Source: Longimicrobiales bacterium | GTDB lineage: Bacteria > Gemmatimonadota > Gemmatimonadetes > Longimicrobiales > Gaopeijiaceae | DNA: 64,000 bases | NCBI GenBank assembly: GCA_963422615.1 | Contig: OY730414.1 | Location: 1,240,001 to 1,304,000, forward strand | Direction: 5' to 3' | In this document: one piece after another, positions 57,170 to 63,884 of the stretch | Layout of the letters: each line of letters opens with the position of its first letter | Position numbering within the stretch: the stretch's first letter is position 1 | Position numbers and translations under genes: made by a program | The notes under the pieces: model-generated | Databases searched by the model: none | Told to the model about the DNA's origin: nothing | Seen by the model: the letters and a program-made list of their open reading frames with translations, nothing else

Positions 57170-59854
57170 ATGGGAGGTACGGCTGTGCGGATGGGTAGAG
57201 GAGGGGTGGTTGCCGCGGTGGTGAGTTTCGGATCTGGGCTTCTTGGCGCCGGAGGACTCCTGGGTCAGAGCATTGAGAAAGGGGCCGACGGGGTCACGGG
57301 CGGCGGCGCGCCGGTGCCCACGGTGGAGGCCTTGCGCTTGGTCGGACCCGACCCCGTTATCGACGGGTTCCTGGACGAGCCGGATTGGGAGAACGCGATG
57401 GCGGCGCGCAACTTCGTCGTCTTCGAACCCGACGAAGGCGCGGCTCCTTCCCAGGATACGGAGGCCCGAGTGCTCTACGGGGACGAGGCTCTCTATGTGG
57501 GGATCCGGGCCTTCGACGACTCCCCCGATTCCATCGTCACGCGTCTGGCCCGGCGCGACGAACGTCCCCACTCGGACTGGGTCGATGTTGTGATCGATAG
57601 CTACCACGACCGCCGCACGGCGTTCCGTTTCTCGGTCAACCCGGCCGGCGTCAAGGCAGACAGCTATCTCTTCGACGACACGGACCAGGACGACTCCTGG
57701 GACGCAGTATGGGATGTGGCCACCCAAATTGACGACCAGGGGTGGACGGCGGAATTCCGCATTCCCTACTCCCAGCTGCGCTTTGGCGGTGCGGCCCGTC
57801 AAACCTGGGGGATCAACTTCGTCCGCCAGATCGCTCGGCACCTGGAGATGAGCCTCTGGGCTCCGATCTCCAAGGGAGACGGGGCCATCGTGTCGCGTTT
57901 TGGAGAACTGAAGGGCCTTCGCGATCTGTCACCACCCCGGCGCCTTGAGGTCCTCCCGTACTCCCTGGTGCAGGTTGAGAGCGCCCCGGGGAGGTCGGCG
58001 GATCCCTTTCACGCCCCGCGGGACTTCTCTTCGGCGGTCGGCGGGGACATAAAGTACGGCATCACCACCAATCTCACGCTCGACCTCACCATCAACCCGG
58101 ATTTCGGCCAGGTGGAAGCAGACCCGGCCCAGGTGAACCTCACGGCTTTCGAAAGCTTTTTTCCCGAACGCAGGCCCTTCTTTGTCGAAGGCGCGAACAT
58201 CTTTTCCTTTGGATTTTCGGAAGGTGACGGGGATCTTGCGAGCGAGGGCCTCTTCTATTCCCGCCGAATCGGCAGGGCACCCCAAGGCCGGGTTCCGTCT
58301 TCGGTGTATTCCGACACCCCCGACCGGACCCGGATCGTCGGCGCAGCGAAGTTGTCGGGGAAGACCCGGACCGGGTGGTCTCTCGGTTTTCTCAATGCCC
58401 TGACCGGACGAGAGAAGGCCGATTTGGCCGACGAATCCGGCCCTCTGGACGGCCGGCTCGTCGAGCCGCTGACCCTCTATGGCGTGGGCCGGGTGAGCAA
58501 GGACTTCCGGGCCGGGAAGAGCGCCCTGGGCGTCATTTCCACTTGGACACAACGCGACCGGACCGGGGCCGACGAACTTGCGCTCCACACCGGAGCGTAC
58601 GCCGCCGGCGTCGACGCTCGCCATCGCTTCGGAAGCGATCGCTTCCTGGCTACCGGATATCTTCTGGGATCCACTGTCCGCGGCTCTGCGGAGGCGATCA
58701 GCCGAACTCAGCGATCGCCGGCCCGCTACTTTCAGCGGCCCGATGCGGAACACACCGAGTTTCACCCGGATCGCACTTCCCTCAAGGGTTGGGCCGGATC
58801 CGCTTCCTTTCTCAAGGTGGCGGGGGGATCCTGGCGCTACGGAACCGGGGTCATGGCCCGCTCTCCGGGGTTTGAGGCCAACGACCTGGGGTTCATGCGG
58901 GAATCGGACTTCCTCAGCCCCTGGGTCTGGGCAGGCTATAACCACTACAAGCCGACCGAGCGGCTGCAACGCTGGAACGTCAATTTCAATGGATGGAGCG
59001 CGTACAGTTTCGGAGGGGAGCGCTACAACACGGGTGGGAACCTGAACGGCAGCCTCACCCTGAAGAACTTCTGGAGTGGCTACGCGGGCGTTGCGCACAA
59101 CGCGGAGGGATTGACCAACACGGCCCTTCGGGGAGGCCCCTTGCTCCGCCGCGACGCATCGTGGAACGGCTGGTTCGGGGTCCGTTCCGATTCCCGCAAG
59201 CCGCTTCAGTTCAACGTGAACAACAACTGGCAGGTACGCCCGGAGAGCGGTTCCCGGCGTTACGCATCGAACGTCGGTTTGCGCTGGCGTCCGTCTTCCA
59301 GCGCCACGATTTCGGCGGGACCCTTCGTGAACTGGCGGGTGGAGGACCTCCAGTGGGTTGGCAGCTTCGACCTTGGGGGGCCGCCCCGTTATCTGTTTGG
59401 GCGCATGAGCCAGACGACGGGGGGCTTCACCGCCCGAGCGGACTGGACGTTTTCGCCAACCCTTTCCCTCCAGGTGTATGCCCAGCCCTTCGTTTCGGCG
59501 GGTGACTACAGCCAGTTCAAGCGGATCACCGATCCCCGAGCGCAGGCGTACCGGGACCGGTTTGTTGCCGTGGAGAGCGGGGACGGAGGGGAGGGAAGGC
59601 TAGAAGGAGACATTGATGGAGACGGCACCGGGGATGCCTTCCGAAACCCGGACTTCAACGTCAAGCAGTTCCGGTCGAACGTCGTTCTGAGATGGGAGTA
59701 TCAACCGGGCTCCACACTCTTCCTCGTCTGGTCCCAGGGAAGGGACCACTTTGCTCGGAGCGGCGACTTTTCCTTCGGCGGTGACTTGGGCACCCTTTTC
59801 GACCAGTCCAGCGAGGATGTATTCATGCTCAAGGCGAGTTACTGGATCGGGTAG
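57170..59854 (+). CDS. CBM9-like plus DUF5916 outer-membrane protein
   Basis: IDGFLDEPDW, WTAEFRIPYSQLRF, TINPDFGQVEADP, ERRPFFVEG, FYSRRIG, LRWEYQPGS; aromatic C-terminal strand. Confidence 0.85.
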   Translation: MGGTAVRMGRGGVVAAVVSFGSGLLGAGGLLGQSIEKGADGVTGGGAPVPTVEALRLVGPDPVIDGFLDEPDWENAMAARNFVVFEPDEGAAPSQDTEARVLYGDEALYVGIRAFDDSPDSIVTRLARRDERPHSDWVDVVIDSYHDRRTAFRFSVNPAGVKADSYLFDDTDQDDSWDAVWDVATQIDDQGWTAEFRIPYSQLRFGGAARQTWGINFVRQIARHLEMSLWAPISKGDGAIVSRFGELKGLRDLSPPRRLEVLPYSLVQVESAPGRSADPFHAPRDFSSAVGGDIKYGITTNLTLDLTINPDFGQVEADPAQVNLTAFESFFPERRPFFVEGANIFSFGFSEGDGDLASEGLFYSRRIGRAPQGRVPSSVYSDTPDRTRIVGAAKLSGKTRTGWSLGFLNALTGREKADLADESGPLDGRLVEPLTLYGVGRVSKDFRAGKSALGVISTWTQRDRTGADELALHTGAYAAGVDARHRFGSDRFLATGYLLGSTVRGSAEAISRTQRSPARYFQRPDAEHTEFHPDRTSLKGWAGSASFLKVAGGSWRYGTGVMARSPGFEANDLGFMRESDFLSPWVWAGYNHYKPTERLQRWNVNFNGWSAYSFGGERYNTGGNLNGSLTLKNFWSGYAGVAHNAEGLTNTALRGGPLLRRDASWNGWFGVRSDSRKPLQFNVNNNWQVRPESGSRRYASNVGLRWRPSSSATISAGPFVNWRVEDLQWVGSFDLGGPPRYLFGRMSQTTGGFTARADWTFSPTLSLQVYAQPFVSAGDYSQFKRITDPRAQAYRDRFVAVESGDGGEGRLEGDIDGDGTGDAFRNPDFNVKQFRSNVVLRWEYQPGSTLFLVWSQGRDHFARSGDFSFGGDLGTLFDQSSEDVFMLKASYWIG

Positions 59855-59889
59855 ACAGCCGGAGATGGGGGCGGGCCGCGGTTGGCGTC

Positions 59890-61542
59890 ATGCCGGGGGG
59901 GCCCGCTCCCGGTCCTCGGTCTCCTATTCCCGGCCCCGCAGGGGGGGAGACCGGGGAGTGCGGGTCCACGACGGGCGCGGCCCGGAGCCCCGGACCGGCC
60001 GTTGCCGCTCCGGGTTGCACCCGCCACCTTAGACTTCGTCTCCCGGTCGGTAGTCCTGGGGGGTCCCAATCTGCAGCCTTTCCGGTATCGGAGGTTTTTC
60101 TCCTGCCCGCTCCACGCTTTGTGGCCGTCGTCAAGAGCGACTGCGAAACCTGTCGCTTGGTGCTCCCGGTGCTTTCCGAGATCGCACGTGCCGGCCACGA
60201 CCTCACGGTCTACTGGCAGGATGACGGGGCCTTTGTCGACAGATGCCCTGCGACCGTGGTGGACGATCGGAGCCTTGAGCGCTCCTTTCGCCTGGGTGTC
60301 GAGACCGTCCCCACCTTGGTGTGTATGGAGGGCGGGTCGGAAAGGGGGCGGGCGGTGGCGTGGAACCGGGCCGAATGGCGCGCGTTGACGGACCTCCAGT
60401 GGCTGGGACCTGACCTTCCCGAACAGAGACCGGGCTGCGGTTCCGCTTCCGTGGATCCTGGGGTTGCGGACATCCTCCATGCCCGTTTCGGGGAGACGGG
60501 GATTCGGGCGCGGACCATTGAGGCCGGTCCCTACGCCGACCCAGTGGAAGCCTGTTTCGACAGAGGGTGGACGGACGGCCTTCCCGTCGTTCCTCCGACC
60601 CCGGAGAGGATCCTGCGGATGTTGCGAGGAACCCGCCGCGACCTGGGGGAGGTCATCGGCCTTGTTCCTCCGGATCTGGTCCCTTGCACCGTTGAAAAAG
60701 TGGCGATCAACGCCGTCTTGGCGGGATGTCGGCCCGAGTATTTACCCGTTGTGCTGGCCGCCCTGGAGGCAGCTCTCGACCCGGGGTTCACCCTGCACGG
60801 GGTCACGTGCAGCACCTGCTTTTCAAGCCCCGTCATCATCGTGAACGGCCCCGTTGCCAAGCGGATCGGCATGAACGGGGGGATGAACGCCCTGGGCCAG
60901 GGGAACCGGGCCAACGCGACCATTGGTCGAGCGGTCAATCTGGTGGTGCGCAACGTCGGGGGTGGGCGGCCCGGGGAAATCGACCGTGCGACGTTGGGAA
61001 GTCCGGGCAAGTACACCTTTTGCTTCTCGGAAGACGAGTCGGACCCGGAGTGGGAACCTCTTGCCGTGTCCAGGGGGGCAAGGGCCGGGAGGAGCGCGGT
61101 CACGGTGTTCGCCGGAGACGGCGTTCAAGGCGTGACGGACCGCCGCGCCCGGACCCCGGAGGAGCTGACCCGGTCTCTGGCCCTGGCCCTTCAAGCGGTG
61201 GGGCATCCGAAGCTGTGCGAGTGGGTGCCCGCCGTGCTGGTCATTTGCCCCGAACACCATGACATCTACCGGAGGGCCGGGTGGGATCGAAAAGGGATCA
61301 CCGATGCCCTCCACCGGGCCCTTCTGCGCCCCCGGGCAGAGGTCGTCGCTGGCGCGGTCGGGGTGGCGGAGGGAATGCCTCCTTCCCCGTCGTCGGAACG
61401 GGTCCCCAAGTTCCTTCCGGACGCCCTGCTCCTGGTCCGGGCTGGGGGGGCCGCCGGGGCTTTCTCCGCCATTCTCTCCGGATGGCCCGGCGGCCGCGTG
61501 TTCGGGGAGTCTCATCCTGTTACTCGAGAGATCGACGAATGA
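59890..61542 (+). CDS. Thioredoxin-like CxxC domain fused to the conserved 'GWTDGLPVVPPT' domain that accompanies UGSC proteins
   Basis: VKSDCETC, VETVP, PGCGS, GWTDGLPVVPPT, RANATIGRA; ATGA overlap with the next gene. Start uncertain. Confidence 0.8.
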   Translation: MPGGPAPGPRSPIPGPAGGETGECGSTTGAARSPGPAVAAPGCTRHLRLRLPVGSPGGSQSAAFPVSEVFLLPAPRFVAVVKSDCETCRLVLPVLSEIARAGHDLTVYWQDDGAFVDRCPATVVDDRSLERSFRLGVETVPTLVCMEGGSERGRAVAWNRAEWRALTDLQWLGPDLPEQRPGCGSASVDPGVADILHARFGETGIRARTIEAGPYADPVEACFDRGWTDGLPVVPPTPERILRMLRGTRRDLGEVIGLVPPDLVPCTVEKVAINAVLAGCRPEYLPVVLAALEAALDPGFTLHGVTCSTCFSSPVIIVNGPVAKRIGMNGGMNALGQGNRANATIGRAVNLVVRNVGGGRPGEIDRATLGSPGKYTFCFSEDESDPEWEPLAVSRGARAGRSAVTVFAGDGVQGVTDRRARTPEELTRSLALALQAVGHPKLCEWVPAVLVICPEHHDIYRRAGWDRKGITDALHRALLRPRAEVVAGAVGVAEGMPPSPSSERVPKFLPDALLLVRAGGAAGAFSAILSGWPGGRVFGESHPVTREIDE

Positions 61543-62069
61543 ACGAACACAGCACCGTCCTCCATGACCCCACGTCCGAGACCGCCCCGCGGATCCGACC
61601 CCGATGTCCCCCTCCGGCTTCCCTTGACGGAAAGACGGTCGGCCTCTTCGACCTGGGCAAGACCCGCGCGGGAGAGTTCCTGGACTACCTGGAATCCCGG
61701 CTTCGCGACCGGGGAGTTGCGACCCGGCGATTTGCCAAGCCGACAAACGCCAAACCGGCCACCCTGGAGATTCTGGAAGACATCGCGACCCATTCGGATG
61801 TGGTCGTGGAGGCTCTGGCCGATTGAGGGTCCTGCACATCATGCGGTCTGCATGACATCAAGGCGCTGGACGACCGGGATGTTCCTGGTGTGCTCGTGGC
61901 GACAACGGAGTTTCGGGAAGCGGCGGAACACCAAGCCCGGACGCTGGGATTTGGTCCCGCGGTTGTATGGGTGCCGCATCCCGTCCAGAACCGTACGCCC
62001 GAAGAGTTGGAACGGTTGGCCGGTGTGGCGACCCAACCCGTTTTGGAAGCCCTGACGATGACCAAGTGA
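61539..62069 (+). CDS. UGSC family selenoprotein (in-frame TGA read as Sec96)
   Basis: ATG 61539 ...EALAD-TGA(61824-61826)-GSCTSCGLHD... continues in frame to TGA 62067-62069; 176 aa; SECIS-like hairpin follows the TGA. Confidence 0.88.
61839..61855 (+). promoter_or_regulatory. Putative bacterial SECIS hairpin
   Basis: TCATGC-GGTCT-GCATGA: 6-bp stem with a G-led apical loop starting 18 nt after the in-frame TGA. Confidence 0.7.
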
Positions 62070-62117
62070 ATCCCGGGCGGCGGCCCGGCGCTTGTCGTGA
62101 TGGACCCCGGGAAGCCT

Positions 62118-63884
<1,767 letters not shown>

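Follow-up and report, generated by a model that had tools for sequence, protein, structure and literature searches.

The 64,000-nucleotide window analysed here, taken from a Longimicrobiales genome, harbours a pair of overlapping genes, the shorter of which is crossed by an in-frame UGA (Table 1). The frame of this shorter gene, from the UGSC family, runs from ATG 61539 through the TGA at codon 96 and on for 80 further sense codons to a stop at TGA 62067–62069, and taking the internal TGA as U yields a 176-residue protein with the motif U-G-S-C-T-S-C, just as a sequence-only reading of this DNA had described. That reading also held that the 3′ half has no convincing start of its own; the first in-frame start there, GTG 61890 (59 codons), indeed lies past the motif and would lose it.

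Table 1 Positions of the two genes and their features in the window
Feature	Position	Strand	Description
Partner gene	60103..61542	+	Thioredoxin-like domain (CETC), Cys linker, about 345-aa 'Unknown_1' core
CxxC (CETC) of the partner's thioredoxin-like domain	60142..60153	+	Weak TIGR01068 match (E 0.08); 'thioredoxin' in source names
PGCGS linker motif of the partner	60430..60444	+	Cys codon replaced by TGA plus hairpin in one homologue
UGSC-family selenoprotein gene (inferred)	61539..62069	+	176 aa with U96-G-S-C99-T-S-C102; alpha/beta fold, predicted to be flavodoxin-like
In-frame UGA, inferred selenocysteine codon	61824..61826	+	Cys in homologues; TGA kept in phylum; Sec machinery
Putative bacterial SECIS upper stem-loop	61839..61855	+	6 bp stem, GGUCU loop 18 nt past UGA

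The UGSC gene and its relatives

The Pfam model PF24696 (UGSC) matches the read-through protein with 119.6 bits (E 2e-34; cut-off 25) over residues 8–173 and model positions 2–171 of 172, so that both halves around the TGA are covered. The NCBIfam model NF041046 matches over its entire length (1–147 of 147; E 1.4e-34) with a score, computed with C substituted for U, of 119.2 bits against an equivalog cut-off of 125. On the Pfam match the gene is, as had been proposed, a further member of the already known UGSC family, which dates back to about 2007 (PMC1976440; PMC2398784, Zhang & Gladyshev, both as far as their available text goes). According to the accessible part of PMC2398784, the family is among the most abundant selenoproteins of the GOS metagenomes, with 255 sequences, and has in common with our gene the U-G-S-C motif, interchange of Sec and Cys, a SECIS and linkage to a domain termed 'Unknown_1'; the accessible part of a 2026 review still lists it as uncharacterised (PMC13188914). 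The relevant papers returned by our search, which covered literature outside subscription, are bioinformatic surveys only, with no functional study among them, and the available sections of PMC1976440, PMC2398784 and PMC13188914 give neither a function for UGSC nor a link to GrdB.

A protein search found 52 relatives among 756 candidates. Among the 35 relatives that were aligned, all 25 full-length homologues have Cys in the column of the TGA; the remaining ten are short, nine ending at ...ALAD and one being aberrant, in keeping with the earlier expectation that automated annotation truncates this protein. A UGSC match above the cut-off is present in 35 of 301 genomes of the phylum, the source genome counted, each with one TGA inside, and selA is present in 36/36 TGA-bearing relative genomes examined, both being counts in which related genomes are not independent observations. 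Cys-form versions occur in cultured strains, for example of Bradyrhizobium, Methylobacterium and Sphingosinicella. The third Cys of the motif (C102) is kept in 60 of 70 UGSC members and is W or G in the other ten; the invariance of the GSC positions is no test, these being mostly fixed by the motif pattern used for picking members.

The hairpin and the selenocysteine machinery

The hairpin that the sequence-only reading placed right after the TGA is present, with TCATGC (61839–61844) and GCATGA (61850–61855) enclosing the loop GGTCT (61845–61849), but it begins 12 nt past the TGA and is not directly adjacent to it. The published rules for bacterial SECIS elements, as given in the available text of PMC13188914, call for a loop of 3–9 nt, a stem of 4–16 bp, G in the first two loop positions, a spacing of 16–37 nt and an MFE of –7.5 or lower, and the 5-nt loop, 6-bp stem and 18-nt spacing found here fall within this geometry. 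The MFE is –10.6 for the 39 nt after the UGA and –7.0 for a 26-nt core window. Taken by itself, the hairpin has no excess stability over shuffled sequences (four windows, z from –0.44 to –1.60). Of 1,500 random TGAs of the source genome, 197 are followed at SECIS distance by a G-loop hairpin that is just as stable, and 41 have a hairpin of –4 kcal/mol or lower with its loop at 18–19 nt.

The hairpin rises above chance through its conservation, which in the sequences compared is limited to TGA-bearing homologues. Once identical 60-mers and loci missing the motif pattern had been dropped, 32 phylum loci gave 15 sequences for the comparison, 121 metagenome loci gave 120 and 80 Cys loci gave 58; the metagenome loci were found by a DNA pattern that left position +17 free and did not extend to the 3′ arm. 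A stem of 5 bp, in register and enclosing a loop that opens with G, is present in 15/15 phylum, 120/120 metagenome and 2/58 Cys sequences, that is, in all 135 TGA forms as against two of the 58 Cys forms, which code for a near-identical peptide. Positions +17 and +29, both silent, can pair with each other in 135/135 TGA sequences and in 26 of the 58 Cys sequences, where 25 are expected by chance, and within the phylum they covary (A–T in eight, G–C in seven). Because the hairpin is kept in TGA forms and not in Cys forms, it is credible as a SECIS, as the earlier reading had supposed.

The loop has counterparts elsewhere. Counted from the U of UGA, GGTCT stands at offset +21 in the SECIS of Escherichia coli fdhF, in the source genome's own FdhA gene and in the UGSC gene, and the TGC...GCA closure of the loop is common to fdhF and UGSC; unlike the UGSC hairpin, that of fdhF carries one more A ahead of GG and its stem is longer and bulged, and the lower stems differ. 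The UGSC family may thus be seen as retaining an fdhF-like loop within a conserved coding motif.

The source genome (2.57 Mb, one contig, 98% complete) encodes all four components that the sequence-only reading had asked for, selA (497 bits), selB (308), tRNA-Sec or selC (79) and selD (378), each above its cut-off, and its selD has an in-frame TGA of its own. Since Cys aligns with the TGA, the hairpin is kept in TGA forms and the Sec machinery is in place, we regard it as nearly certain that TGA 61824 encodes selenocysteine and that the gene is a selenoprotein gene. That the TGA is instead a true stop, in a nonsense pseudogene or split gene whose hairpin is a by-product of its codons, seems extremely improbable: the insignificance of the isolated hairpin and the NF041046 score just below cut-off would suit such a stop, but an identical TGA followed by an open frame recurs in all 35 over-cut-off phylum genomes, the downstream frame spans at least 60 aa in 117 of 120 metagenome TGA sequences, and the hairpin separates TGA from Cys sequences. 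All 36 TGA-form genomes examined, moreover, carry selA; among 25 Cys-form genomes (chosen from the 80 Cys-form loci), by contrast, just 10 have tRNA-Sec.

Predicted fold and remote kinship to GrdB and PrdB

An AlphaFold model of the UGSC protein, based on 26 sequences (pLDDT 91.9), has five strands alternating with helices, and U96 sits where strand 3 ends and a helix starts. Its Foldseek matches are flavodoxin-like proteins, FMN reductases and TIR domains, its VIA matches are generic Rossmannoid folds (Z 9–11) without a clear winner, and no thioredoxin is among the top-listed structural matches of either. On these listed matches the fold is predicted to be flavodoxin-like, and probably not the thioredoxin fold proposed in print. 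Searches of PDB sequences with the protein and with its profile gave nothing significant, and an ESM Atlas search with a Cys homologue gave no usable match beyond PF24696.

When 70 UGSC members are compared with 18,950 NCBIfam models (E ≤ 0.1), 43 of them match GrdB (TIGR01917; best 1.3e-5), 40 GrdF, 19 TIGR01918, 18 GrdH and three PrdB (TIGR04483); every other family, UGSC itself aside, is matched by at most two of the 70. Two hhalign comparisons with 19 PrdB-like selenoproteins gave probabilities of 51% and 64%, at pairwise E values of 1.5e-4 and 6.5e-5. The alignments take in the U-x-x-C motif together with the strands that follow; the first places Sec on Sec, and the second is off by three residues. 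The source protein itself matches the GrdB model at E 0.036 with 13 bits, the curated cut-off being 602. We call any homology to GrdB and PrdB remote because an HMM of the 19 PrdB-like proteins does not place UGSC among its best 15 of the 32,191 frames of its own genome. Together these weak similarities suggest that UGSC is a remote homologue of the Sec-bearing end of reductase protein B, and not a member of that family.

The likeness is confined to part of each protein. UGSC shares the UxxCxxC motif and the weak recurring HMM matches with GrdB, GrdF and GrdH (TIGR01917, NF040794, NF040795), and the source protein's match falls on their C-terminal Sec region; those proteins, however, have about 430 residues as against 176, and UGSC lacks their N-terminal GRDB domain, with PF07355 absent from its Pfam matches. 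With PrdB and stand-alone PrdB-like selenoproteins it shares the format of a small Sec subunit with UxxC after a β-strand, and a downstream helix-GxPxV-strand pattern; unlike D-proline reductase, it has no PrdA-like proprotein, and single-sequence homology is undetectable. Families of the GrdA, GrdB and GrdE type were not found in the source genome, of which searches only that for GrdB was confirmed to work elsewhere. As a separate observation, stand-alone PrdB-like genes with an in-frame TGA (U-x-x-C) occur in many Gemmatimonadota, at 25 loci from genomes of the phylum; of the 26 genomes in which PF07355 matches, just one has a strong match to UGSC as well.

A conserved partner gene

The partner gene, like the link to GrdB, is an addition to the first reading. 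Its stop overlaps the UGSC start as ATGA, an overlap also seen in eight of nine relatives compared at the junction. It may begin at CTG 60103, behind GGAGG, or at the called GTG 60121; the CTG suits homologue lengths better, so a non-standard start is possible, and the longer open reading frame from ATG 59890 is probably an over-call. The closest named relatives are from Gemmatimonadota, and the family is very large, all 8,000 scored candidates having passed.

The two genes keep company. The partner adjoins UGSC in 79 of 80 Cys loci and lies beside it in 28/28 phylum and 14/14 metagenome loci with full flanks; it is seen in 61 of 121 metagenome loci overall, many of which are too short to judge. 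A strong partner match occurs in 35 of the 301 phylum genomes, the same 35 as for UGSC, with one extra marginal match from each search, in another genome. Gene order is reversed in the 21 most distant Cys loci, and in their partners our query did not find the thioredoxin-like domain.

The partner core is the 'Unknown_1' domain of PMC2398784, which the available part of that paper shows fused to UGSC in GOS reads (Fig. S1A); in the source genome, by contrast with that fusion, the two are encoded by distinct genes that overlap, and a thioredoxin-like domain accompanies 'Unknown_1'. Look-alikes of the partner in the ESM Atlas fall into unnamed or 'thioredoxin family' clusters, in one of which PF24696 is found on 16%. 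None of 88 partner cores matches an NCBIfam model, GrdE and PrdA included, there is no recurring Pfam family, and a partner profile searched against PDB sequences gave nothing significant; by sequence, then, the partner is unrelated to GrdE, the alpha subunit of the GrdB-type system. The core has invariant R, E and W residues, and its model is confident (pLDDT 93.5). Foldseek gave no match to it at E ≤ 0.001, and the best match in VIA has Z 5.3, which does not amount to proof of a new fold. The class I Fe-S fumarate hydratase fold was considered for the core and set aside as too weak (E 1e-3, TM 0.27; in VIA, Z 4.0 and rmsd 5.2 over 183 residues).

At one metagenome locus (L140; one of 86 motif matches), the linker reads PG-TGA-GS and an 8-bp hairpin follows with its loop 20 nt downstream. 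The partner there may be the second selenoprotein of its operon, and from this one case there is a hint of redox activity at the linker Cys.

Could U96, C99 and C102 instead bind an Fe-S cluster or metal, the pair then being a metal-dependent lyase of the hydratase or desulfidase type whose thioredoxin-like domain holds the ligands reduced? Three chalcogen residues at CxxCxxC spacing, the fumarate hydratases that head the insignificant Foldseek matches of the core, and carboxylate transporters recurring nearby would all accommodate this, but C102 is replaced in one-seventh of the members (10/70), the fumarase similarity is at noise level, and the GrdB relatives use the motif as a redox or nucleophile site, according to the available text of PMC13188914. 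We consider such a lyase improbable. Of the 'redox or metal site' put forward earlier, the redox half is thus the likelier and the metal half the less likely.

Genomic neighbourhood and proposed function

Around 160 loci, GntR regulators recur most often (27), followed by TctC carboxylate-binding proteins (16), SDRs (15) and thioredoxin reductase (10, a representative of this cluster being above the TIGR01292 cut-off); then come S9 peptidase (8), CoA-transferase III (7), and BKACE, 3-hydroxyacyl-CoA dehydrogenase and a dicarboxylate symporter (6 each). These counts include related genomes, and 38 of 62 neighbour clusters were annotated, most others resembling shadow frames. This company suggests small-acid catabolism, with no neighbour in the 160 loci common enough to name the substrate.

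A BKACE gene precedes the pair in several Bacteroidota, where an amino-acid permease and a gene resembling 3-hydroxyacyl-CoA dehydrogenase also lie close by. This cluster, which we take as a hint of carnitine- or amino-acid-type catabolism, is found at 5–6 loci, mostly in Bacteroidota, and is too narrow to serve as an indicator of substrate. In the source genome, an SLC13/DASS permease with TrkA-C domains (62118–63884, minus strand) is convergent with the UGSC gene; it was rejected as part of the system, being on the opposite strand and not recurring among the annotated neighbour clusters. A large DUF5916/CBM9-like protein (57170–59854, plus strand) is encoded immediately upstream of the partner and is likewise not among the annotated recurring neighbours. 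Within 59800–62200 we found no sigma-70-like promoter, and the single terminator-like match is at chance level.

The reading we favour, at a probability of roughly 45%, is that UGSC and its partner form a two-subunit, thioredoxin-driven reductase resembling GrdB and PrdB and acting on a small substrate, a proposal built on sequence and on analogy. Substrate binding in glycine reductase falls to GrdB, which bears the UxxCxxC motif, and its homologue PrdB takes part in reductive ring cleavage that is not coupled to phosphorylation (both from the accessible part of PMC13188914); Sec as an attacking nucleophile is described in the accessible part of PMC10838667. By analogy, the partner core would bind a small organic acid or amine, and Sec96 would attack the partner-held substrate and cleave a carbon–heteroatom bond, after which Cys99, along with Cys102 where present, would resolve the adduct and free the product. 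The oxidised site would then be recharged from NADPH by way of thioredoxin reductase and the partner's CxxC domain and linker Cys; we propose a thioredoxin-based electron supply because the partner has a thioredoxin-like domain and thioredoxin reductase lies near 10 of the 160 loci. As in proline reductase, the reaction would not be coupled to acetyl-phosphate formation.

Somewhat more tentatively, UGSC with 'Unknown_1' may represent a widespread, undescribed two-subunit selenium/thiol reductase with a built-in thioredoxin relay. It would combine a stand-alone GrdB-type Sec domain with a substrate-binding subunit that has no clear match among solved folds, and the linker Cys of its relay could itself be Sec. 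If this holds, selenol chemistry of the Stickland type would reach a new substrate in Gemmatimonadota, Proteobacteria, Bacteroidota, Actinomycetota and one archaeon.

The partner's CxxC domain and its thioredoxin reductase neighbours would equally serve a thiol/selenol repair or detoxification system, acting on a sulfoxide, disulfide, persulfide, peroxide or metalloid adduct, in place of a catabolic reductase that cleaves C–X bonds. UxxC is a general redox motif, the other selenoprotein candidates of the source genome are mostly peroxiredoxin- and OsmC-like, and the available part of PMC2398784 groups UGSC with thiol oxidoreductases. The predicted UGSC fold, however, is probably not thioredoxin-like, the sole recurring family matches are to Grd and Prd proteins, and a 345-aa core with invariant R, E and W, in a setting of transporters and regulators, suits a substrate-specific enzyme better. 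We judge repair or detoxification the unlikelier role, though clearly a stronger contender than the metal-dependent lyase.

For the favoured two-subunit reductase, three features make a concrete assay out of 'function unknown', namely the fixed partner, the GrdB-like Sec domain and a fold predicted to differ from that of thioredoxin; the Cys-form versions in cultured strains permit that assay without Sec expression. What merits testing is the putative, uncharacterised enzyme that the two genes would encode.

Other features of the source genome

Further in-frame TGAs were seen in the same genome. The formate dehydrogenase alpha-subunit gene at 2308502 (plus strand) has one (CSRA-U-HAP), with a SECIS whose GGUCU loop and offset are those of the UGSC gene. 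Two OsmC-like genes, at 874638 (minus) and 1009307 (plus), have near-identical hairpins with the loop GAG/GGAGG 26 nt past the UGA, and two AhpC/TSA (peroxiredoxin-like) genes, at 2454383 and 2470851 (both minus), carry HW-U-PYC and RG-U-TVQ, again with hairpins; on these sequence features, the OsmC-like pair and the AhpC/TSA pair are each likely to be selenoproteins. Elsewhere, 17 tRNA genes are gathered within 2.3 kb of the minus strand, at 287968–290279.
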